From Desulfomicrobium sp. (GTDB lineage: Bacteria > Desulfobacterota > Desulfovibrionia > Desulfovibrionales > Desulfomicrobiaceae): a DNA stretch of 64,000 nt. Location of the stretch: contig JAXGMI010000001.1 of assembly GCA_040768745.1 (NCBI GenBank), forward strand, positions 1,568,001-1,632,000. The letters are read 5' to 3'. Positions within the stretch are counted from its first letter, which is position 1. Every line of letters begins with the position of its first letter. The notes beneath the pieces are model-generated. The model had not been told where the DNA came from and ran no database searches. It was given only the letters and a program-made list of their open reading frames with translations. The position numbers were made by a program, and so were the translations under genes. Shown piece by piece: positions 1 to 13,031 of the stretch.

Positions 1-44
1 GCCACATCCTCGGGGCGGGTCATGCCGCAGACCTTGATGATCAT
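1..44 (-). CDS. trpF: Phosphoribosylanthranilate isomerase, N-terminal part (runs off window)
   Basis: Reverse strand reads MIIKVCGMTRPEDV from an ATG overlapping the trpC stop (ATGA); typical TrpF KxCG start. Confidence 0.85.
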   Translation of the reverse strand, partial: MIIKVCGMTRPEDV

Positions 45-813
45 GACGCCTCCCCAGTCAGACCGGCCAATCCATGACCGGGGTCGGGGTTTTTCATCAA
101 CGCCGTGCCGACGAGGAGGCCGTCCAGGCCGGCGGATTTGAGTTCCCGGACGTGTGCGGGGGTGGAGATGCCGCTGGCTCCGATCCAGATTTCACCTTCC
201 TCCTTGCGGCGCACCAGGGTCAGGCAGCGGTTGAGGTCTGTTTGCAGCGTATCCAGGTCGCGGTTGTTGACCTGGATGATGGAGCTCTTGATCTCCTTGG
301 CCCGGTCCAAATCCCTTTCGTCGAACACTTCCACCACCGGCTCCAGCCCCAGTTCCAGGCACCGGGCGTGCAGTCCGGCCAGTTCATCCTGGGTCCGGAA
401 CATGCGCACGATGAGCAGGATGGCCGAGGCCGGCGTGGCAGCGGTGGCCTCCACCTGCAGGGGATGGAGGATGAAATCCTTGCGCAACAACGGCAGGCCG
501 ATATGCCCGGTCTCTGTCAGATGGTCGAGCCTGCCCTTGAAGTAACGGGTTTCGGTCAGGATGGACAAAGCGCAGGCCCCGGCCCTGGCGTAGCCCTCAC
601 ACGTCTCCCGGGGTGGGGCCCCAAGGTTGATGTCCCCTTTGGACGGGGAGGCCGCTTGTATTCAGCGATGATCCCGCTGGATCCTGACCTGGTCAGGGCC
701 GAGCCAAAGCCAGGCCTGGCCCCAGCCCATGGCGTGCATACATGCCCTGAGGCCTGCAAGCGCATCAGATCGGCGATCTCTTCAGTCTTGGCTTGGCGGA
801 ACAGGTCAAGCAT
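41..813 (-). CDS. trpC: Indole-3-glycerol phosphate synthase (one frameshift near 652, probably sequencing error)
   Basis: ORFs 556-813 (IIAEYKR) and 41-568 (SILTE, LRKDF, VNNRDL); adding one G restores RASPSKG. Confidence 0.9.
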
Positions 814-1807
814 GGCTCACTCCGCGTGACATCCCCCGGCTCACGTGTGCCCTGGCCTCGTTCATGGCCGCGTGCAGGGAAAGATGGTCTTCCAGCAGGT
901 GCAGGGCCAATCCCAGGTTCAGGGCGACCATGTCCTTGAGGGGTTGGGATCCACGACCTGAAAGGACTTCCCTTTGGCGTTGGAGGGCCTCGCCCCTGCT
1001 CGGACAACTCAGGTCCTGGGCGGAGCATGCGGCCATGCCGAATTCGTCGGGGTCAAGGTGGGCTTCGCGGACGCTGCCGTGTTCCACGAAGAGGATCCGT
1101 CCGGGTCCGCAAGGGGTCAGTTCGTCGAATCCTCCCGCTCCATGGACAATGGCTGCCCGATCCAAGCCCTGTCGTGTGGCCAGGACCCTGCCCATCATGG
1201 GGGCGAAACGGAAGTCCGGCACGCCCAGAATCTGATGAGTGGGCAAGGCCGGGTTCAGAAGAGGCCCCATGAGGTTGAATATGGTCCGGATGCCGAGCTG
1301 CTGGCGGATGGGCCCGACGTGCCGGAAGGCAGGGTGGAAGTGCGGGGCGAAGAGGAAGACGAAGTTGCGCTTGGCCAGTTCGACTTTGGCCGCTTCGGGG
1401 TCCGAAACCAGGGGATAGCCCAGGTCCTCGACGACATCGGCGCTGCCACATGTGCTCGATACGGCCCGGTTGCCGTGTTTGACCACCTGATATCCCCTGT
1501 CCGCCAGGAAGAAGGAGACGGCCGTGGAGCAGTTGAAGCTGTGCCGACAGTCCCCGCCGGTTCCGCAGGTGTCGATGCGTTTTCCTGAAAGGCCGGTGAT
1601 GAGTCGGGCGTGGCTCAGCGCCGCCTCCACGGCGGCCGAGAGTTCGTCGGCGGTTTCGCCCTTGGCCCGCAAGCCCAGCAGAAACGCACCGGCCTGTACG
1701 GGGGACACTTCCCCAGCCATGAAAAGGTCGAAGACTTCCTTGGCTTGATGGGCGGACAGGTCAGCGCCCGTGGACAGATGCTCGAGGATATGACTGATGG
1801 TGTTCAT
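806..1807 (-). CDS. trpD: Anthranilate phosphoribosyltransferase
   Basis: DTCGTGGD, KHGNRAVSS, FNLMGPLLNP motifs. Confidence 0.97.
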   Translation of the reverse strand: MNTISHILEHLSTGADLSAHQAKEVFDLFMAGEVSPVQAGAFLLGLRAKGETADELSAAVEAALSHARLITGLSGKRIDTCGTGGDCRHSFNCSTAVSFFLADRGYQVVKHGNRAVSSTCGSADVVEDLGYPLVSDPEAAKVELAKRNFVFLFAPHFHPAFRHVGPIRQQLGIRTIFNLMGPLLNPALPTHQILGVPDFRFAPMMGRVLATRQGLDRAAIVHGAGGFDELTPCGPGRILFVEHGSVREAHLDPDEFGMAACSAQDLSCPSRGEALQRQREVLSGRGSQPLKDMVALNLGLALHLLEDHLSLHAAMNEARAHVSRGMSRGVSHA

Positions 1808-1810
1808 GGT

Positions 1811-2398
1811 TCACTCCTGCGCTGTGGCGCACATGTTGATGAAGTTGCGGAGCAGCATGGGGCCTTCTGGTGTCAGGACCGACTCCGGATGAAACTGCAC
1901 CCCCAGCCATGGCCGGTCTTTGAAGGCCAATGCCATGACCTCGCCGCCATCTGCCCGGGCCGTGATGTCGAAAGGCAGATCCGTTCGGCCTTCCTCGTGC
2001 ACGGCCAGGGAATGGTAGCGGCCGACCTGCATGGGGTTGGGCAGACCGGCAAAAAGGCCAGTTCCGCTGTGGTGGATGTCCGATGTTTTGCCGTGCATGA
2101 TTCGCCGGGCCGAGCCCACGGTGACGCCACTGTGGTGCGAGAGGGTCTGGTGTCCCAGGCAGACGCCCAGGACGGGCACGGTGCGCGGCACCAGGTCCAG
2201 AAACCGCAGGCAAAGACCGGTGTTCCGCGGATGGCTCGGGCCGGGTGAGAGGATGACGCCGCGCAAGGCACTGTCTGCAGCCAGATCCAGAATTTCCGGT
2301 TCGTTGTTACGAAGCACGCAGGGATGTGCGCCCAAAGTCTGGAAAACCTGAACCAGGTTGAAAGTAAACGAGTCAAAGTTGTCGATCAGTAAAATCAT
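1811..2398 (-). CDS. trpG: Anthranilate synthase component II (glutamine amidotransferase)
   Basis: IDNFDSFT, SPGPS, GVCLGHQ, QFHPES. Confidence 0.96.
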   Translation of the reverse strand: MILLIDNFDSFTFNLVQVFQTLGAHPCVLRNNEPEILDLAADSALRGVILSPGPSHPRNTGLCLRFLDLVPRTVPVLGVCLGHQTLSHHSGVTVGSARRIMHGKTSDIHHSGTGLFAGLPNPMQVGRYHSLAVHEEGRTDLPFDITARADGGEVMALAFKDRPWLGVQFHPESVLTPEGPMLLRNFINMCATAQE

Positions 2399-2425
2399 CG
2401 CCGCCTCCCGTGCTGGTGATGGCCT

Positions 2426-3784
2426 TCAGATGGCCCGGGCCTTGTTGTGACATTCCTGCCATTCTTTTTCCGGATCTGAATCAAAGACGAGCCCGCGCAC
2501 CTGCCTGCCAATGGATCTGTCCGTCTTCGACCCACAGGGAGCGGATGGTGATGCCTGTGTCCAGATTGACCTGCCCCTGATCCAGTCCGATCCAGCCGAT
2601 GCCCCCGGCATAGGGCCCCCGGTCGAGCTGCTCCTCGTCGGCAATAATCTGCATGGCCCTGATCTTGGGCGCGCCAGAGACGGTCCCCGCCGGGAACCCG
2701 GCCTTCAATACGTCCATGGCGTCCAGGCCGTGGTCCAGTCTGGCCGAGAGATATGAGGTCAGATGCATGACGTGGGAGAAGCGTTCAACCTGCATGTATC
2801 TGTCCACGTGCACGGTGCCGGGAGCGGCGATGCGGCCCAGGTCGTTGCGGCCCAGGTCCACGAGCATGACGTGCTCGGCCCGCTCCTTTTCGTCGGCCTG
2901 CAGATCCTCGGCCAGTACCTGGTCCTCGGCCTCGGTGGCCCCGCGTACACGGGTTCCGGCAATGGGCCGCAATGCAGCAGTCCGTCCTCGCAGCGGATGA
3001 GCAGCTCAGGTGAGGAGCCCATGATCGTCAGGTTCTCGAAGGCCATGAAAAAGGTGTAGGGAGAGGGGTTGATCTGTCGCAGTCGACGGTAGAGTTCGAA
3101 GGGGGAGCCGGAGAACGGAGCGGAAAAACGGGTGGATAAAACAACCTGGATGGCTTCACCCTGGGTGATAAGATCCTTGGCAATGTGAACGCGGCGCAGG
3201 AATTCATCACGGTCCGGGGTACTGGTGATGGCTCCGACCACGGCAGGGGCAAGGGTGCGTGGCCGCTGGCAGCCGTTCAGGTTGGGGGTTGAGTCCAGCG
3301 TCAGGTAGCAGCAACGGTGGTGCAGGTGATCGAAGAGGATGACCTTGCCGGGCAGGACCATGACGGAACGGCCACCTTCAGGTGGGAGTCTGTCGGCCAT
3401 GGCCGGCTCGAAGATTCCGGCCATGTTGTACGCCAAGTACCCGCAAATGCTGCGGGTCATGGCCGGGAGCTTGCCCAGATTCTGAGGCCCGGTGACCGTC
3501 AAGGCCCCCATGCAGGCGCGCAGGCCGGGGATGTAGTCCTGTCCGCTGAATGCCATGAGAGCGTGCAGTCGGGGGTCGTAGCTCTGCACGTCGAGTTTAC
3601 CGCCCCGGCAGGACAGAATCAGTCTGTAATCCCAGCCGATGAGACTATATCGACCCAGACGGCCGTCCACTTCGGTACTTTCGAGCAGAAAGCCCTGCTT
3701 GTCGCGCACGAGGGTCAGGTACAGGGAGATGGGGGTCTGGGTGTCCGCCGGGAGCCAGGTTCCTTGTTGGGGTAAGGTGATCAT
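2426..3784 (-). CDS. trpE: Anthranilate synthase component I (frameshifts near 2972, 2496 and probably 2428; the true end may be near 2373)
   Basis: Pieces 2759-3784 (NPSPY, GSSPE), 2481-2972 (RPIAGT, EHVMLVDLGRND, PAGTVSGAPK) and 2426-2644 (LVFDSDP). Confidence 0.9.
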
Positions 3785-3817
3785 GGTGTCTCCATCATCG
3801 TCGTCGCATTATGGAAT

Positions 3818-3853
3818 AAAAAAGGCCGGATCCTGCAGGAGGATCCGGCCTTT
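3818..3853 (-). terminator. Intrinsic terminator between tyrA and trpE (attenuator terminator)
   Basis: Minus strand AAAGGCCGGATCCT-CCTGC-AGGATCCGGCCTTT followed by further U residues. Confidence 0.9.
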
Positions 3854-3938
3854 CTCGCCTTTTTTTACCGTACCGAGACGGCAGCGCATGCCGTCAGGAA
3901 GCGGGTCCCCCTGCGTCATGCTTCGTGCGCCACCACCA
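3818..3938 (-). promoter_or_regulatory. Putative Trp-sensing attenuator using the 3' end of tyrA as leader
   Basis: TGG TGG TGG at 3930-3938; antiterminator strand GCAGGGGGACCCG (3902-3914) can pair with CGGATCCTCCTGC (3835-3847) in the terminator's 5' arm and loop. Confidence 0.8.
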
Positions 3939-4672
3939 CAGAGCCTTCTGGCTCAGCAGTTCCAGATCGCCGCCCGCGGCAACGTTCAAATACGACCGGA
4001 ACATGCGCACCGCCTCAAGGCTGTGGGGGTTGGCCTCGAACATGGTGGTGAAGAGTGACGCATCCTCGGTGATCATCTTCGTGGCCGCCTCCACGCGCCG
4101 ACCGAACGAGGGCGTGAAGAACCGCTCGATTCCGGTTTCCAGGGGGAAGCGCAAAGGTAGGCGACGGTGGTCACGAAGTTGAGTCCTTGAATATAGGCCA
4201 TGGCACGGTCATGCTCATCGGCCGTTGTGGTGAAGGGTGCAAAGCCCAGGTTGCGGAAGCAGTCCGATATATTATCGGTCGCTTCATGTCCACGCCCTTG
4301 AGTTACGGCAATTCGCAGCTCCGCGTCAAGGGTGGAGGGGCCAAAAAGCGGGTGGGTGCCGACCACGGGCGTGGTGGTGGCGGCGAGCATCTCATGCAGA
4401 GGCTGGACCTTGACCGAGCAGATGTCGGCCAGGATCGTTGTTGCAGAGAGGAACGGGGCGACGGCCCCGACCACCTCGCGCATGGCTTTGATGGGCACGC
4501 AAAGCAGGACCAGAGAAGCGCCGTGAACTGCTTGCGACAAGGATTCCGGGTCGAGGGGCTGGTTGACTTCGGAGACGGGGTATCCTGCGTTCTGGAAGGC
4601 GCGTACGAACCGGGCCCCCATCTGGCCCCTGGCCCCGATGACCACGACGGGCGACGCCGGACTAAGTTTCAT
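3894..4672 (-). CDS. tyrA: Prephenate/arogenate dehydrogenase (frameshift in a C-run near 4143)
   Basis: GARGQMG Rossmann motif, DICSVK, HPLFGP, EHDRAMAYIQGL; continues in ORF 3894-4154 ending ALWWWRTKHDAGGPAS. Confidence 0.9.
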
Positions 4673-6004
4673 GCGAGTCCTCCAATCCGTTGCCGAGGCG
4701 CACGAGGGACCAGGCGTCCCAGAATCCGGGGAAGGATTTGCTCACACAGTCCGGGTTGTCCAGATGCACACCGATTCCCTTCAGTTCCAGGAGGGAAAGG
4801 CTCATGGCCATGCGGTGGTCGCCATAGGTGCAAAGATTGACGCTGCAAGGTTGAAGGTTGCCGTCTCCACGAATGAGCATACCATCGGGGCGGGCCTCAA
4901 TATACACTCCGGCTTTGGACAGTTCCGTGACCGGCCCCTGAATCCGGTCGCATTCCTTCAAGGTCAGATGCGCGGCCCCGGAAATGACGGTTTCGCCATG
5001 GGCAAAAGCGGCCACGACGGCCACGGTGGGTACGATATCGGGGCAGGAACTCATGTCGATGTCCGCGCCCTGGAGGTTGGAGGGAAAAACTGTGACCGCT
5101 TCGTCCTGCCATTCGATCCGGGCCCCCATGCGGGAGAGGATATCCAGCATGACGCGGTCGCCCTGGGCCGAATCACGGTGCAGACCGGTGATCTGGACCG
5201 GAGTTGAGCCCAGTGCCCCGGCGGCCAGGAAATAGGATGCGTTGGACCAATCCCCTTCCACGCGCATGTTTCGGGCCCGGTAGGGAGCCGGGTCCACGAC
5301 AAGGCGAAGGTTTTCCGGGGCGAGGCCTGCGGCATCGGCGTGACTGCAGGAATGCCATGCATGACCTGTGCGGCGTTCCACAGCCGCAGGCACCCCAAAG
5401 CGGGCCATGGAATCCAGTGTCAGGGCCACATAGGGCCAGGAGGCCGCGTCTTTTCCCCGAGGCCGAATGAGCGTCCTGGTCTTGGCCAAGGGGGCCGCCA
5501 AAAGCAGGCCCGAAAGATACTGGCTGCTCTGCTCCAGATTGATGCTCACTTCGCCGCCATGGAGGCCTGGGCTGTCCAGGACCAGGGGCGGGTATCCCTT
5601 TTTTCTTCAAATACGATGTCGACGCCCTGCAGGGTGAGGGCGTCGGTCAGGTGGGCCATGGGACGATCATGCATGCGTCCCTCCCCGTGGATGCGATAGC
5701 GGCCGGGGATGGCCGCAGCCACGGCGGCCATGAGTCTGCACGTGGTGCCCGACTCCCCGACGTTCATGGAGATGAGTTCCGGGGTGGACGGGCGAGGCAG
5801 GTCGATGCCGCGGACAAAGAGCTTGCCGTCCACAGGCTCGATGGTTGCTCCCAGAAGACGCAGACAGTCCGTGGTTCGTGCCAGGTCCTGGCTGTTCAGC
5901 ACGTTTTCCAGCAGGGACACGCCGTTGGACAGAGCCGCACAGATCAGGGCCCGGTGGGAGAGGGATTTGGAGGAAGGGGCAGGAACGCGGACGGCTGTTT
6001 TCAT
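4662..6004 (-). CDS. aroA: EPSP synthase (frameshift in an A-run near 5600)
   Basis: SKSLSHR, GESGTTCR, SSQYLSGLL, KECDRI, DHRMAM, KSFP. Confidence 0.92.
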
Positions 6005-7113
6005 GTTTGTTCCTGCGGCACGCCGTTCCCGTAAAGCTGCGGCCCGGAGGGATAGCTGCCCAGAACGCGCATGGTATGGCAGAGTTTGGTCAGGTTGTGC
6101 ATGGTGCTTTCATACTGTTCCTGGGACAGGTCGCTTTCCACGTCCATGAAGAAGACGTATTTCCATTTTTCCCCCTTGAGTGGGCGGGACTCCAGCTTGG
6201 TCAAATTGAGCCCTTGGGCGGCCAGCAGGTTGAGGATCGCGGCCAGGGCCCCAGGGCGGTCCGCAGTGGTGAAGAGCAGCGAGGTCTTGTCCCTGCTGCT
6301 GCCGACTGTCGGAGTGGGACCGATGACCAGGAATCTGGTCCAGTTGTCCGGCAGATCCTGGATGTCCAGGGCCACGGCCTTCAGCGCGTAGCGTTCCACC
6401 AGACGCGGGTGCCCGATGGCGGCAGCGCCTTGGCCCTCTCGCTCGGCCTGCATTGCGGCGGCAGCCGTGCTGTCCGCTGGGATGACAGCGGCCTGCGGAA
6501 CGTTGTTCCGCAGCCACCCCGAGCACTGGGCCAGGGCCTGGGGATGGGAATACACCCTGCGCACCGTGGACAGATCGCTGTTTCTGGACAGGAGCGCATG
6601 GCTGATGCGGCTGAAGAGTTCGGCATGGATGTAGACGTTGTACTGCAGAAAAAGGTCCAGGCTCTGGCCGACGCTGCCTTGCAGGGAGTTTTCCAGGGGG
6701 ATGACCCCCAGATCGGCTTTGCGCGATGCCACGTTCAAAAAGACGTCGTGCAAGGTCTGGCAGGGCGCAAAGTCCATGGACTGGCCCAGGTATTCCAGGG
6801 CCGCCTGGTGGGTGAAGGTCCCCTCGGGCCCGAGGTAAGCCACGATCTGGGGCTGCTGCAGGCGCCGGGAGGAAGAGAGGATTTCGCGGTAAATGGCCCG
6901 CAGGTGGTCCTCCGGCAGGATTCCAGGGCTGATGGAGGCCAGGCGGTTCAATACCTCTTTTTCCCGGAAGGGTTTGAAGACCACATCCAGTGATTCGGAT
7001 TTGATCTGACCGACCTCGCGACTCAGGCCCGCCCTCTTGTTCAGAATCTCGACGATGCGGTCGTCCAGTTCGTCGATCTGTTCCCGGATCTCTGTCAGGC
7101 GTGCGCTGTTCAT
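6001..7113 (-). CDS. pheA: Chorismate mutase/prephenate dehydratase
   Basis: IREQIDELD CM domain, YLGPEGTFT, SHPQALAQC, NWTRF, ESRP; start at MNSARL. Confidence 0.95.
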   Translation of the reverse strand: MNSARLTEIREQIDELDDRIVEILNKRAGLSREVGQIKSESLDVVFKPFREKEVLNRLASISPGILPEDHLRAIYREILSSSRRLQQPQIVAYLGPEGTFTHQAALEYLGQSMDFAPCQTLHDVFLNVASRKADLGVIPLENSLQGSVGQSLDLFLQYNVYIHAELFSRISHALLSRNSDLSTVRRVYSHPQALAQCSGWLRNNVPQAAVIPADSTAAAAMQAEREGQGAAAIGHPRLVERYALKAVALDIQDLPDNWTRFLVIGPTPTVGSSRDKTSLLFTTADRPGALAAILNLLAAQGLNLTKLESRPLKGEKWKYVFFMDVESDLSQEQYESTMHNLTKLCHTMRVLGSYPSGPQLYGNGVPQEQT

Positions 7114-7115
7114 GA

Positions 7116-8084
7116 CTATTCCTTGATGTCCTCGGTGATGCGCATGCCGAAGTGGCGGCCGGCCTGATCCATGCGGCAGAGGACAGCGTCTCCGGGGTGC
7201 AGATCGACCACGCTGACAGGACAGCCATCGGGCCGGACCAGACGGATGGTCTCGGCGTTCTGCAGGAAGATGGAGCCCCTCCTGCCACCACACTCAGCCT
7301 CGATGAGCAGCATGGGCCGAACTTCCACTTTGCAGCGGCCGACTGTGGCCAGGGTGGTGGATCCGTCCGCGGCCACAATGAGCACTTCCGAGCCGGTGTC
7401 CAACTCGTCGAGATAGGAGGTTTTGTCCCCCGGCATGGCCGTGTAGGCGTGCACTGCGCCAGCATTGATGCGGAAGGGGCGCGGAGCGACGTAGGGGTTG
7501 GATTCTGTTTCAGCGTTGATGAGAAAAGTGAATGCGCTGGAGTTGCCGACCAGCATTCCTTGCCCGGACTGCAGACGGCTCATGGTGTCCACACAGACCC
7601 GGTGCCCCAGTCCTGCCGGTCTGACGGTGGTGATGTTTGCAGTGCCCAGGTCAAGAACTCCCTGGCTGAGCTTGAGTTCGCGGACGATGGATTTCAGATC
7701 GCCCACGGCCTGGGGCAGGACGACAAGGGTTTTGACCCCGCGCTCGAGGATGCCGGCGGCAAGTCTGGCCCGGTCAAGGCTGTCCACTTCCACAGCCAGG
7801 TTGTCGGACTGGGCCAGGATGTTCTCCACCGGAATGATTTCCCAGCCTTCCTTCAGAATAACGCGCTTGCCCTGGGACAGGAGATGTACGGCCACCTCCT
7901 CGTCGGGTTTGCCGGCCAGATGGACAAAGCACTGATCCTCTGCGGAAAGGACAGGAATTTTGCTCAAGGCCCGCACCGATTCCTCCCGCCCGAGTTCCAC
8001 GATGATCCCGTCCACCCCGGATTCCAGGGCCAGGGTGACGTGACCCTTGTCATAGGGGACAGCGTAAAAGAATACGTTCGTCAT
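7116..8084 (-). CDS. 3-dehydroquinate synthase II (archaeal-type AroB')
   Basis: WEIIPVENILA, RVCVDT, RPFRINAGAVHAY, LQNAETIRL, GRHFG. Confidence 0.93.
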   Translation of the reverse strand: MTNVFFYAVPYDKGHVTLALESGVDGIIVELGREESVRALSKIPVLSAEDQCFVHLAGKPDEEVAVHLLSQGKRVILKEGWEIIPVENILAQSDNLAVEVDSLDRARLAAGILERGVKTLVVLPQAVGDLKSIVRELKLSQGVLDLGTANITTVRPAGLGHRVCVDTMSRLQSGQGMLVGNSSAFTFLINAETESNPYVAPRPFRINAGAVHAYTAMPGDKTSYLDELDTGSEVLIVAADGSTTLATVGRCKVEVRPMLLIEAECGGRRGSIFLQNAETIRLVRPDGCPVSVVDLHPGDAVLCRMDQAGRHFGMRITEDIKE

Positions 8085-8097
8085 GATCGATCCGGCC

Positions 8098-8904
8098 TCA
8101 GAGTTTGGGTTCTTCGAGCAGGGCCAGGGCTTGGTCCACGGTGTAGTCCATGTGTACGACGGCATGCAGGGCCTGCACCAGGCGCGTGGGGTCCTTTGCC
8201 TGAAAGATGTTGCGGCCCATGGACAGCCCAGCACCACCCGAGGATATGGAATCGTGCGCCATCTGCAGGATATCGCGGGGCGAATCCATGCGGGGGCCGC
8301 CAGCGATGACAACGGGCACACAACACCCTTCGGTGACCGTGGCAAAGGACTCCGGGTCTCCGGTGTAGACGACCTTGATCACGTCCGCTCCCAGCTCTTC
8401 AGCGAGGCGTGCGCAGTGGGCCACAGTGGCGGGATCCCATTCTGATTTGACCTTGGGCCCACGGGCGTAGACCATGGCGAGGAGCGGCATGCCCCATTCG
8501 TCGCATTTGGAAACCACCTTCCCCATGTCCCGCAGCATGTCCCTTTCGGATTCGTCGCCAAGATTGAGATGGATTGACACAGCATCAGCACCGAGCTTGA
8601 TCCCGTCCTCAACGCTGCCGACCAGGATCTTGGCGTTGGGAAAGGGGGACAGTGTGGTGCTGGCCGAAAGATGGATGATCAGACCCACATCACGGCCGTG
8701 CCCGCGGTGTGCACATCGGGGCAAGCCCTTGTGCATCAGGACGGCATTGGCCCCGCCCTCGGCCACCTTGTTCACAGTGTCGCGCATGTCCACCAGGCCG
8801 GCAATGGGGCCGACCGTGGTGCCGTGATCAAGAGGGACGATGATGCTTCTGCCCGTGTTGCGGTTGAAAATCCTTTCCAGTCGAACGCTTTTTCCCATGT
8901 TCAT
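8098..8904 (-). CDS. 2-amino-3,7-dideoxy-D-threo-hept-6-ulosonate synthase (AroA', class I aldolase)
   Basis: PLDHG, HLSAST, GADVIK, AGGP, GRNIFQ; adjacent to AroB'. Confidence 0.9.
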   Translation of the reverse strand: MNMGKSVRLERIFNRNTGRSIIVPLDHGTTVGPIAGLVDMRDTVNKVAEGGANAVLMHKGLPRCAHRGHGRDVGLIIHLSASTTLSPFPNAKILVGSVEDGIKLGADAVSIHLNLGDESERDMLRDMGKVVSKCDEWGMPLLAMVYARGPKVKSEWDPATVAHCARLAEELGADVIKVVYTGDPESFATVTEGCCVPVVIAGGPRMDSPRDILQMAHDSISSGGAGLSMGRNIFQAKDPTRLVQALHAVVHMDYTVDQALALLEEPKL

Positions 8905-8944
8905 GGTGTCCTCCGGTTGTGGCCGGGGCTCCGGCGGCGCGTAT

Positions 8945-8980
8945 AAAAAAGGGCCGCCGGCGTGTCGCCTGCGGCCCTTT
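8945..8980 (-). terminator. Attenuator terminator of the aro/trp operon leader
   Basis: Minus strand AAAGGGCCGC…GCGGCCCTTTTTT. Confidence 0.88.
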
Positions 8981-9007
8981 GGTTGGTTTGCTCTGCGTGA
9001 AAATCGG

Positions 9008-9094
9008 CTAAAGCTGTACCTCCAGACCACAGGCTCTGTTAAAATAGAAGTACCAAAAAAAGTAGAGGCTGTGGGTGGAGGTGACGTTCGCCAT
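9008..9094 (-). CDS. Aromatic amino acid leader peptide MANVTSTHSLYFFWYFYFNRACGLEVQL
   Basis: 28 codons including 8 consecutive Tyr/Phe/Trp codons, directly upstream of a terminator, with alternative pairings available. Confidence 0.88.
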   Translation of the reverse strand: MANVTSTHSLYFFWYFYFNRACGLEVQL

Positions 9095-9104
9095 AGTGAT
9101 TGAG

Positions 9105-9134
9105 GCATTACTCAGTTTGGGAAGTAGGTGTCAA
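9105..9134 (-). promoter_or_regulatory. Putative sigma70 promoter for leader/aro operon
   Basis: TTGACA (9129-9134) and a weak -10 (AGTAAT) 16 nt downstream. Confidence 0.5.
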
Positions 9135-9281
9135 GGGTTTTTTGTGACCCCTGGTCATTTTTTCGACCGCCAGGTTCGGGTGTGGTTCAGCTCTTCGAGA
9201 AGGCATTTTCACATTGATGCACCGCCCAATCAAGGATAAGAAAAAGGCCATCTATTTGCAAAGGACCGAGGAGAAGGTTGC

Positions 9282-9785
9282 ATGGCCGTCACGAAGGGAT
9301 TGCCGCGCGTCGTCCGTAAGCTTTGTCTGTGGTGCCAGGGACAGAGTTGGAGATTGGTCAAGGAATGCCCTCAATCGGGTTGTCCTCTGCATACCTGTCG
9401 GTTGGGAGGGGATGGCGACGGGCAGTTGCTGGGTTGTTTGCAGGCCTTTTGTCTGGACTGCGCCGGAAGCCAGGAGGCGGTGGAGGCCTGTACGGCCGAT
9501 CTGCCTATGGGAGGCCAATGTCCCTGTCCTGCACACCCTTTCAGGAGCCTTTTTTTTCAGACCGCAGAAGCCCAGGCGGTCATCCAGCAGGTCAGAAAGC
9601 TGCCTGGTCTCGGAATTCCAGCAGAATCCAAAGAGACCGAGGCCGGTGGTGTGTGTCAGAGGGAAGGCCGAGAAGGAGCATCCGGGCCGGGGCTTCCAGA
9701 GGTCTCGCTGCACTCGGAAGGGGTCTGCCTGCGCGTGGGTTCAACCGTCAATGCGTGCCGGGCACCCGAAGCCCTTGATATCTGA
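9282..9785 (+). CDS. Cys-rich hypothetical protein with two CxxC…CPxH repeats (putative metal binding)
   Basis: CLWCQG…CPLH and CLDCAG…CPAHPF. Confidence 0.6.
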   Translation: MAVTKGLPRVVRKLCLWCQGQSWRLVKECPQSGCPLHTCRLGGDGDGQLLGCLQAFCLDCAGSQEAVEACTADLPMGGQCPCPAHPFRSLFFQTAEAQAVIQQVRKLPGLGIPAESKETEAGGVCQREGREGASGPGLPEVSLHSEGVCLRVGSTVNACRAPEALDI

Positions 9786-9859
9786 GTTGAAAAAGATAGA
9801 TTCGACCTGCTCCGGCTGACTTCCCGAGCAGGAGAGAGCTGCGAGACCGGGTTGAACAA

Positions 9860-10050
9860 TTACAAAGCGCGGAGCAACTCTGCGCCTTTCAGGACCAGGG
9901 AATGAACAGTTTGGACCATGGCGAGAATGATGTCCCAGTAATGGTTGGCCAGGAAGAGCAGGGAAAGAACGGTGAGAAAAAAAGGACGGACCAGACCCAG
10001 TGAATGATGGTTTCGAGAATGCGCAACAGCAGTCGTGGCTTGGGAGTCAT
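9860..10050 (-). CDS. Small membrane protein (probable frameshift in a T-run near 9980)
   Basis: GAGGA RBS before ATG MTPKPRLLLRILETIIHWVWSVL; adding one T continues as FFLTVLSLLFLANHYWDIILAMV…AL*. Confidence 0.45.
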
Positions 10051-10079
10051 GGATGTCCTCGTTGTGGTTGGATGCAGCG

Positions 10080-10295
10080 TCAGCGTTTTTTATGTCGAGA
10101 GGTTTCCCCCCGGCGAAGAGGGTCTGACCAGATATTCCTGACCATCCAGAAGACAGCGTAGCCTGCCGCTGCGAGCAGAAAGAAGCGTGGGAAAAAGATG
10201 CACACCAGAATCCCTGCCGTCAGGAACAAGGGAGGAATCTCCAGAGATTTGAGCAAGCTATGGGCCTGTCGGAAAATATTTTTGAATTGATCCAT
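10080..10295 (-). CDS. Small membrane protein
   Basis: 71-aa ORF with hydrophobic core and basic tail. Confidence 0.6.
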   Translation of the reverse strand: MDQFKNIFRQAHSLLKSLEIPPLFLTAGILVCIFFPRFFLLAAAGYAVFWMVRNIWSDPLRRGETSRHKKR

Positions 10296-10413
10296 TGCCC
10301 TGCACCAAGTTGAATATAAATCGTATTATGCGCAATCCCACTGAAAGTAAACGCGAAAACTTATTTCAGGAGTTTGCTGCCAGACGACTCATCTTCCAGA
10401 ATCAGGAAAATCA

Positions 10414-11808
10414 ATGACGCAAGCGAGTCGCTCCGGGCCAAGTTTCGACCTGTCCAACCTTGAAATGCTTTTTGCTGGTCATGCACCCCGCTTGGCACAC
10501 ATGCGCGATGCATCGTCCTTTGCTGCCGATCTTGCGGCCTGCAGCTTTATGCCCATGGAGCAATCCGAACTCCTGGTCCGTTCGGCCCTGTTGCATGACC
10601 TGGGATACGCACCTTCCCTGCGCCGGTACGGCTTCCACCCCCTGGACGGAGCCTTGTTTCTGGAAAGTCAAGACGAACATCCGTGGGTGATCGAAGGGGT
10701 ACTGCGCCATTCCGGTGCGGACCGCAGGGCTTCGCTTCTGCCCGAAGTTGCCGAGCAGTATGCCATGCGTCCTGTGGCCGTGGGCGCAGCCTGGTTGGTT
10801 CGTGCCGTGACCATGGCGGACTGGCGCGCGGCCGGAATCGGCGGTCGGGTGTCCTTTGGGCAGCGATTGCGGGACATTGTTGACCGCAATCCCGACAACC
10901 CAGGGAAAGTGCGCAGGGCCGAGGCCATGGTCGCCGAGGTGCGGGGATGGTTTCTGGACTGGGTCAAAACCACGAATCGAGCCCGTCCCCTGCCCTGGGT
11001 TTTTTGTGACGTGGATCACACCCTTATCTGTCCGGGTGATCCCCTTTCCGCGGGGAATCGCACTTCCATCAAGGCGTATGTTGCGGCTGGAGGGCGCTTT
11101 TCCCTGGCCTCAGGCAAACATCCCAAAAGCGTTGCATCCCTGTCCCGCGACCTGGGCCTTGAGTCGGCCCAGGTCGCTGCCAACGGCACCTGCGTTTTCA
11201 AAGGGGGTGTGATCACGGTCCTAGCCCATCTTGGAGATGCGGCCATGTCGCTGGTCGCCAGGCTCAAGGCCCTGGGGCTGCCCGTGGCCCTGTACCGAGA
11301 ACAAGGCATTGAGGCCTGCTGCAACTGGGAAGACTGCCTTGACGAGCTTTTTGTGCGCTATGGCGAGATCCGTGCCGAGCGGAAACGGGGGTCAGGGCCG
11401 GTGCTCAAGATTCTGTGCGTGGCCCATAGCGCCGACCAGGAACTGGAGAGAGATCTTCGAAGGCTGGCCGTGTCGCTGGAGGTCGAGGTCTGCCGCAGCG
11501 ACACGCGTTTCATGGAGTTCTTACCTACTGCCGGAACCAAGGGTCATGCCGTGCGCTTTGTGACGCAGCATGAGGATTGGCCTGTTCTGCACACCCTGGC
11601 CCTGGGAGATACTGAAAACGATGCAGCCATGTTTGCCCAGTGCGGGGGCTGCGCCGCAGTGGCCAATGCCACGGGGCAGGCCCTTTTGGGGGCGGATTGG
11701 GTCATCCCGGAATGCGCGGCTGACGGAGTGGGACGGGTGCTCGATGTCGTTCGCCAGGGCGGGGGATGGGGTGGCTTGGCCCTAAGCCTGCAGGTGGAAG
11801 GGCTGTAA
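10414..11808 (+). CDS. HD-domain / Cof-type HAD-IIB phosphatase fusion
   Basis: LLHDLGYAP…FHPLDGA HD domain; DVDHTL, ASGK, KG and GDTEND HAD motifs. Confidence 0.8.
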   Translation: MTQASRSGPSFDLSNLEMLFAGHAPRLAHMRDASSFAADLAACSFMPMEQSELLVRSALLHDLGYAPSLRRYGFHPLDGALFLESQDEHPWVIEGVLRHSGADRRASLLPEVAEQYAMRPVAVGAAWLVRAVTMADWRAAGIGGRVSFGQRLRDIVDRNPDNPGKVRRAEAMVAEVRGWFLDWVKTTNRARPLPWVFCDVDHTLICPGDPLSAGNRTSIKAYVAAGGRFSLASGKHPKSVASLSRDLGLESAQVAANGTCVFKGGVITVLAHLGDAAMSLVARLKALGLPVALYREQGIEACCNWEDCLDELFVRYGEIRAERKRGSGPVLKILCVAHSADQELERDLRRLAVSLEVEVCRSDTRFMEFLPTAGTKGHAVRFVTQHEDWPVLHTLALGDTENDAAMFAQCGGCAAVANATGQALLGADWVIPECAADGVGRVLDVVRQGGGWGGLALSLQVEGL

Positions 11809-11868
11809 CTCCCATCCGGATCATATTCCTCCCAGCACACGACGATCCCATTCCAGACTGCTCTGAAA

Positions 11869-13031
11869 TCAGGTCAGGGACACGAGGGCCTGGCAAAGAA
11901 GATGCGGGTCAATAATGCCTGTGCCGGGCTTGGTCAGCGGGGTTTTGATGACCTGGAGCCCGAGGGCCGACAGGTCGTGTTCAGGATTTTTTGTTCCGGC
12001 ATAGGTTATGGCCGGGTCGATCAGGACGAGGTTGAGCACATCTTCCGGGGTGATACGTTCAGGAGCATCTGCCCGCAGATGTCGGAGAAGTGTGTGGACT
12101 TGACCGGGGAGTGAGAGGCCGGTGCACTCCGGATCAGGCAGGGTGTTGGGGATGAAGACCTTGGGGCACGGTGTCTCACTTACTGCCTGGCCCACGCCAG
12201 CCGGGAGCAGGTTCGCGATCACAGAACTGAAAAAGCTGCCGAACGGGTAGCAAATAAGATCTGCGCTCAGGATGGCAGTGCGGACCTTGTCACCGATGGC
12301 CGGAAGTACCATGCAGTTTTTTTTGTCGTGTCCACCAGGAACAGATCCTCAATCGGCTGTGTGATTGGCGGGACTTCCTTGCCGGTCATAAGATGCTGGC
12401 CCACAAGGTGTGTTCCGTCTTTCAGCACGGCCATGAGCTGCAGGTCTGCGTTGAGGAGGTTGCGGACTTCCCCGCGGACCTGTACCAACTTGGAGTAGAT
12501 GGAAACGATGGGGTCAAGGTGCCTTCCGCTGTTCAGATAGCCGGCGGTGAGGATGAGGTTGCCGACACTGGCTCCGCGCAGATCAAAGTCGGGGCCGGCG
12601 GCATTGTCGAAGATGTGCAGGTGATGCCGGATTATTCTGGCCATGGAGTCGGGTACCCGAGTCATCAGGGGATGGCTGCCGCACGCCAGGGCGATCAATT
12701 CGCATCGCAGCTCTTCAGGGGTTGCAGTTTTGGGCAGACGGTAGGCAACAATTTCGAATATTTCGGGAAATCCGTACAGGGACCGATCCGCCAGGGCCAT
12801 GAGCCGATTGCGCAAGTCGCCGACAGAGGGCATTTTGAAGTAACGCCGCAGCACTGCCGAGCTTCCCCCGGAGTCAAAAGGAGTGACCATGTGGATGGAG
12901 TTGTGCGTGTAGTTGATAAGGGTCTGGCTCGTTTCCCGCAGGGCAGTTCCGCCAGAGAAAAAGAGGATTCGGGGTCCAAGGAAAGGACTGCGCTGGGCTT
13001 TGGCCACGCGGGTCGGATCCGGGACAGTCAT
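11869..13031 (-). CDS. CofD/YvcK-family protein (GAK-system CofD-like; frameshift near 12320)
   Basis: FFSGGTAL, TPFDSGGSS, GDLRNRL, ADLICYPFGSFFSSVIANLL. Confidence 0.85.

Follow-up and report, generated by a model that had tools for sequence, protein, structure and literature searches.

The full-length tyrA frame of this Desulfomicrobium genome very probably serves as the leader of an internal transcription attenuator that senses tryptophan and controls the trp genes behind it. The proposal that ribosome-mediated attenuation uses TyrA in this way came from an earlier note on this DNA, and it is supported here by conservation, spacing, cognate pairing, footprint-constrained folding and the occurrence of the same module behind short leaders. 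Within the window (the whole stretch of 64,000 nucleotides analyzed), the minus strand carries the supraoperon aroA'-aroB'-pheA-aroA-tyrA-trpE-trpG-trpD-trpC; past the window start, trpC is followed by ORFs that we take to be trpF-, trpB- and trpA-like. TyrA relatives at 80-95% identity carry the label Desulfomicrobium. The features concerned are as follows.

9129..9134, minus strand: TTGACA, probable -35 box of the supraoperon (consensus match only; absent from a stricter scan)
9008..9094, minus strand: 28-residue leader ORF rich in Phe, Tyr and Trp (8/10 residues), with a similar ORF before aroA' in 17/20 relatives
8945..8980, minus strand: predicted first-tier intrinsic terminator (-25.8 kcal/mol, U tract; pattern match in 15/20 relatives)
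8098..8904, minus strand: aroA', DeoC/LacD-family aldolase by family match and first gene of the supraoperon, named after PMC1173090
3894..4672, minus strand: tyrA, prephenate dehydrogenase and proposed translated leader, 259 residues once the base missing at 4141 is restored
3930..3938, minus strand: three tandem Trp codons in the last TyrA helix, the predicted stall site (sequence, conservation, structure model)
3902..3914, minus strand: putative antiterminator strand within the final tyrA codons (pairing, spacing, folding)
3894..3896, minus strand: tyrA stop codon TGA, where a ribosome is predicted to cover the antiterminator strand
3877..3895, minus strand: small hairpin nested in the antiterminator, of possible pausing or bridging function (found in Desulfomicrobium, not general)
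3818..3853, minus strand: intrinsic terminator, whose 5' arm and loop (3847-3835) form the antiterminator partner
2481..3784, minus strand: trpE by family match, first gene under the proposed control, with its ATG at 3784; reading frame broken near 2972 by an assembly indel
41..2398, minus strand: trpG, trpD and trpC by family match

The supraoperon would thus carry two attenuators, the first of which, judging from the composition of its leader, would sense three amino acids. The D. vulgaris supraoperon has the same gene order, and a predicted attenuator is drawn before its aroA' that is probably this first-tier leader; unlike the arrangement described here, the portion of that source available to us shows no attenuator separating tyrA from trpE (PMC1173090, Table 7).

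As assembled, tyrA is broken by one missing base in a run of C at 4141, and the N-terminal 190 residues are read in a different frame from WWW. Because the base is present in contigs from all four sequencing runs compared (including two DNA runs whose studies are not flagged as possible sources) and relatives encode an intact TyrA of 259 residues, the split is an assembly error. Further single-base indels at 2428, 2495, 2972 and 5598 are likewise absent from short-read contigs and are also assembly errors. Together with that at 4141 they split tyrA, trpE and aroA, and the remaining split genes in this assembly deserve doubt. The restored protein matches the PDH_N domain and PRK11199 (E 6.6e-37, under that model's cut-off). 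A predicted structure of the TyrA from locus L004 aligns with 2pv7 over 254 residues (Z 24.1, rmsd 3.3), and the nucleotide-binding and helical dimerization domains of TyrA dehydrogenases are present.

All coordinates given in the earlier note proved right, on the minus strand. The TyrA tail contains the three tandem Trp codons, TGGTGGTGG at 3938-3930, and ends 11 codons after WWW, a run found in only 4 of the 4769 ATG-started ORFs of more than 150 residues in this genome (a set that does not contain the split tyrA). A G-rich strand begins 15 nt after the last TGG and can pair (3914-3902 with 3847-3835) at 12 of 13 positions, with one G.U and one C.A mismatch; its partner is the 5' arm plus loop of a strong intrinsic terminator at 3853-3818, between tyrA and trpE. 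The hairpin at 3895-3877, which had been suggested to bring these strands together, is correctly placed but not a general feature: 82/141 loci have a hairpin of -5 kcal/mol or lower in the spacer. The region folds with z = -4.6, and 0/200 shuffles were equally stable. No match to the Rfam Trp_leader, T-box or riboswitch families reached the gathering score in positions 1-12000 of the window, the best overlapping match being Thr_leader (22.2 bits against a gathering score of 55). A general terminator scan did not list the terminator at 3818-3853; a purpose-made finder did. RNA contigs from two runs of one study cover 3939-6000 nearly whole, are patchy over the trp genes and end at 3939, beside the first TGG and at a base that varies among relatives; such contigs cannot show transcript ends or levels, and they were given no weight here.

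Conservation was assessed across the Desulfovibrionales, in which a TyrA profile matched 361 of 401 genomes. Loci were taken from the best-scoring listed genomes, extra members of low-scoring genera and 80 named loci, giving 236 distinct tyrA 3' ends, 228 of them usable, in a sample that is biased toward high scores and three genera and whose counts, coming from related loci, are not independent. Left out were L024 (partial), L005, L100, L146, L241, L285 and L319 (short flank), and L166 and L278 (no alignable Trp run). A quick tree, which omitted L001 and L288, served solely to place losses on branches. A loose first terminator finder was replaced by a strict one, which misses weak terminators at L071 and L302 that were reassigned by eye. 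trpE lies within 900 nt of tyrA at 180 loci, which the strict finder divides into 137 with at least three Trps and a terminator, three with two Trps and a terminator, 11 with WWW and no terminator, and 29 with two Trps or fewer and no terminator. Altogether, 146/228 tyrA ends are followed by a terminator and then a trp gene, counting L071, L302 and four loci (L053, L082, L095, L149) where the next gene is trpC and trpEGD is not at that place; at every locus with a terminator, the gene that follows tyrA belongs to the trp set. All seven families with matches contain the layout, its losses are spread over multiple branches of the quick tree, and in Solidesulfovibrio and neighbors trpE overlaps the tyrA stop, the run is WW and there is no terminator. 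As judged from sequence conservation, the element is real and conserved across the order. Nine loci (L159, L205, L234, L250, L326, L204, L215, L251, L044) have WWW and trpE without a terminator, a setting in which the run could not work through the attenuator proposed here. In genus g32 (L292-L309), long-spacer loci carry, after the terminator and before trpE, a second motif comprising a Shine-Dalgarno (SD) site, a very short ORF and a ACGTGAAAG-like sequence (15/20).

Alignment bore out the expectation that tandem Trp codons are conserved where a terminator and a trp gene follow, the first Trp being kept at 145/146 such loci, at 12/38 trp-linked loci without a terminator and at 32/44 unlinked loci. 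Equal conservation of WWW in TyrA proteins not linked to trp had been named as evidence against attenuation, and this objection holds in part, in that 32/44 unlinked proteins (24 of them in genus g16) retain the run, against 145/146 linked proteins with a terminator. An Arg follows the run at 116/146 terminator loci, as against 13/38 trp-linked loci without a terminator and 8/44 unlinked loci. The second Trp is invariant (228/228), which, together with the persistence of WWW in unlinked genes, indicates that the run also belongs to the last helix of the enzyme. In the predicted structure, WWW lies within that helix (residues 237-252, pLDDT about 77), which aligns with solved TyrA structures. 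Distant homologs have WF, WY or YF at this position, and WW was seen in 1/93 low-scoring homologs, a fragment of the same family. Two of the Trps are probably structural and the first a regulatory addition. Genus g16 retains the first Trp in 24/28 TyrA proteins, for which inertia, a role in the protein or throttling of TyrA by Trp are candidate explanations.

It has to be considered whether WWW is purely structural and the antiterminator and terminator sense general coupling between tyrA translation and RNA polymerase, as a fixed or growth-dependent step-down before trp. The position of the run in the last helix, its persistence without a terminator and the folding of ribosome-free RNA described below would all fit this reading, which is nonetheless unlikely. 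The first Trp tracks the terminator among trp-linked loci and has been lost on several distinct branches of the quick tree, and the position of the antiterminator follows the Trp run and not the stop. Free-standing leaders with no enzymatic role keep both WW(W)R and the spacing, and behind tyrA and its terminator the next gene is in every case a trp gene.

Evidence for Trp sensing by the tyrA frame also comes from the geometry of the antiterminator, which starts 14-23 nt after the last TGG at 130/137 loci. Since the tyrA stop lies 3-12 codons after the Trp run, the strand lies within the coding sequence in some genera and 3' of the stop in others, and across the 137 loci it never starts more than 8 nt beyond the first base of the stop. 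The antiterminator duplex has a median energy of -23.6 kcal/mol, compared with -13.9 for windows of tyrA coding sequence and -13.8 for shuffles, and it outperforms every control window at 109/137 loci. In 44 genus-level representatives the strand pairs preferentially with the cognate terminator (residual -5.0 kcal/mol; 0/20000 permutations; median rank 3 vs 20.5), as against a residual of -0.09 kcal/mol for the same test on an upstream control region. The covariation that had been anticipated between the strands was found in part. The terminator stem covaries (paired in 91% of cells, with both partners changed in 80 cells; 0/500 shuffles) and the cognate preference is positive, but the fixed-column count for the antiterminator is weak (68% paired, 6/500 shuffles) because its register shifts between genera, a slid register scoring higher.

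That weak count, and the fact that the strands are simple G- and C-rich runs, could be taken to mean that the terminator is constitutive and partial and the complementarity a chance product of G/C richness, with trpE perhaps having its own promoter. The cognate preference and duplex controls make this very improbable, as does the presence, at 142/144 terminator loci against 13/84 loci without a terminator, of a G-rich tract located 12-30 nt past the run, a pattern written after the data had been seen. A separate trpE promoter, which the earlier note had recognized as telling against its proposal, was sought by a pattern scan that other promoter types could escape, and promoter-like sites between terminator and trpE were found at 0/137 loci.

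Ribosome positions were then imposed on the folding of 141 loci, the footprint reaching 9 nt past the A site; the folding and spacing results are not independent of each other. The behavior predicted in the earlier note was reproduced by this model. With a ribosome stalled on the Trp codons, the antiterminator is free and the terminator arm sequestered at 139/141 loci, and with a ribosome on the stop the arm is sequestered at 27/141. Both switch conditions hold at 112/141 loci and fail at 29/141, corresponding to 5/44 groups. In the thermodynamic model, ribosome-free nascent RNA forms the antiterminator at 139/141 loci, no protector or pause (1:2) hairpin that would give termination without translation is predicted, and full-length RNA at equilibrium favors the terminator at 127/141. 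Any uncoupling of the ribosome would therefore be expected to cause read-through whatever the Trp supply. The stop lies at least 20 nt from the terminator at 139/141 loci; in the accessible part of a study covering terminator spacing in trpL-type attenuators, a terminating ribosome represses terminators only at shorter stop distances than these (PMC4824070).

Taken together, these observations suggest the following course of events. One transcript would start before aroA' and pass the first Phe/Tyr/Trp attenuator, the lead ribosome trailing RNA polymerase through tyrA. When charged tRNA-Trp is scarce, the ribosome would stall on WWW, covering about 10 nt of mRNA beyond its A site, so that the G-rich strand 14-23 nt downstream is left free to pair with the terminator's C-rich 5' arm and its loop as they emerge, and polymerase would enter trpE. 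When Trp is ample, the ribosome would reach the stop and cover the G-rich strand, and the terminator, far enough from the stop to escape direct blocking by the ribosome, would form. The switch would be kinetic and would need tight coupling, as without a ribosome no protector hairpin would hold the antiterminator strand. On the opposing side, the auxotrophic genes of D. alaskensis as a class were reported not to be induced in minimal medium (PMC3658271); the available parts of that study and of PMC4045070 mention neither trp nor attenuation.

An internal promoter and an in-frame start late in tyrA might instead yield a separate WWW peptide, the switch then being a classical attenuator that merely overlaps tyrA. 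Short leaders do drive the module in g16 and other orders, at this locus an in-frame ATG at 4002 is preceded by GAGG, and 54/141 terminator loci have an in-frame start with an SD-like site. Such starts are no more frequent than at terminator-free loci (36/84), those with ATG alone occur at 22/141 and 10/84 loci, respectively, and no start is conserved in the tyrA 3' end, the best single position being shared by 17/141. TTGAC is found 60-170 nt ahead of the Trp run at 6/141 tyrA loci compared with 16/17 g16 short leaders, and ribosomes from the tyrA start would traverse WWW anyway. A hidden leader is therefore improbable, and the observation that no separate trpL ORF is visible is upheld by the lack, in pattern scans that other promoter types could escape, of a conserved internal start or -35 box, the reading frame being that of tyrA. 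Among tyrA-trpE spacers without a terminator, no short WW leader was found in 18/19, the lone match (L099) being a long ORF.

Natural controls for the TyrA-led arrangement are provided by genomes in which the module stands behind a short leader. In all 31 genomes of g16, a genus that we guess to be Desulfovibrio in the strict sense, trpD lies apart from tyrA, and trpE is preceded, in 19/19 readable regions of 20 fetched (L343-L361), by a short WW or WWW leader ORF whose spacing and terminator are the same. The strict terminator filter accepts 17 of the 19, of which 16 have TTGAC upstream. In its C-terminal half the g16 leader is similar to TyrA tails from Nitratidesulfovibrio and Halodesulfovibrio. 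Searches of this genome and of 151 genomes of the phylum with a covariance model built from the module revealed a second copy here (G000:C2:527685-527800, minus strand; L363:1566-1643), with a 25-codon WW leader and a terminator, preceding a trpB-like gene distinct from the trpB of the main operon. Outside the order, the 26 best loci were read; tandem TGG occurs in 22 of them, always in a frame of 20-89 codons from stop to stop and never within a long ORF, and the downstream gene is trpE in 10, trpB-like in three and trpD in one. Because short WW(W) leaders carry it in g16, in this genome and in other orders, the module is, on sequence grounds, the ordinary Trp attenuator of the phylum, driven here by TyrA. 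In the Desulfovibrionales the TyrA tail has most likely replaced a trpL-type leader, two of the Trps coming from the enzyme's terminal aromatic pair. In other orders (L381, L386, L391, L398, L376), a WWW module also precedes oxidoreductase-like or aminotransferase-like genes; the former presumably resemble indolepyruvate oxidoreductase subunit A, with a TPP domain in 2/4.

A tentative and somewhat doubtful extension is that a Desulfovibrionales ancestor fused tyrA onto the phylum's trpL attenuator, giving WWW a dual role within nested two-tier attenuation. In that event the Trp run of the leader would have landed on the terminal aromatic pair of TyrA. Under Trp shortage, WWW would both open trp in cis and hold back completion of TyrA, shifting chorismate from Tyr to Trp, and this throttling could account for the survival of WWW where the trp operon has moved away. 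A 12-gene transcript would thus be under two tiers of attenuation, the second inside an enzyme. The TyrA-led attenuator itself predicts how Trp synthesis is controlled, through a two-tier attenuated supraoperon, in an order of sulfate reducers. Dependent as it would be on coupling over about 5 kb, it offers a useful test of transcription-translation coupling outside E. coli. It would also illustrate dual coding clearly, and nature supplies the controls: the module follows an enzyme in some genomes and a short leader in others, and several lineages have lost it. Attenuator searches target short 5' leader ORFs and would thus miss sensors in the 3' ends of enzyme genes; a searchable pattern is one codon repeated in tandem close to a C-terminus and followed, about 17 nt later, by a complementary strand, then by a terminator and the matching pathway.

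The literature searched, which left most subscription papers, including comparative attenuator surveys, and supplements outside its scope, contained no account of a tyrA-encoded trp leader. To our knowledge, the main comparative surveys are among those subscription papers, and supplementary lists of attenuators could hold the site. Among the closest relatives are the short-leader attenuators of the Desulfobacterota (g16, other orders and the second copy in this genome), which share WW(W)R, a G-rich strand at about +17 and a GCCG-type terminator; their leaders are ORFs of 20-35 residues, in g16 mostly after a TTGAC box, whereas here the leader is TyrA. In classical trpL attenuation, as in the E. 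coli trp operon and the Rfam Trp_leader family, tandem Trp codons are likewise followed by an antiterminator that overlaps the 5' arm of the terminator, and the stop is placed such that a terminating ribosome covers the antiterminator, with the same polarity as that predicted here. Classical leaders have a dedicated short ORF and promoter and a protector hairpin, whereas here the leader would be a 259-residue enzyme encoded 5 kb from the start of a supraoperon, folding predicts no protector hairpin and Trp_leader has no match.

In E. coli, rph serves as the leader of pyrE, the polymerase reading UTP and a close ribosome blocking the terminator directly, with opposite polarity. As at tyrA-trpE, translation of a full-length upstream enzyme gene governs an intercistronic attenuator; the signal at pyrE is UTP acting through the polymerase, whereas the proposed signal here is an amino acid acting through the ribosome, and the rph-pyrE type has no antiterminator, whereas one is present here and the terminator keeps the distance from the stop noted above. 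This long-ORF precedent is described, in the portions available to us, as UTP-dependent pausing and attenuation, with an rph frameshift lowering pyrE expression (PMC7818426; see also PMC6892915). In YtgCR of Chlamydia trachomatis, a full-length protein with a function of its own, a WWW motif acts as a Trp sensor with control over trp genes, but stalling there lowers the expression of a repressor that works in trans on another promoter, and the accessible part of the report describes no cis antiterminator ahead of the trp genes (PMC7755916). As far as these sources could be consulted, then, the precedents cover parts of the arrangement only, rph-pyrE the long ORF as leader and YtgCR the WWW within a protein.
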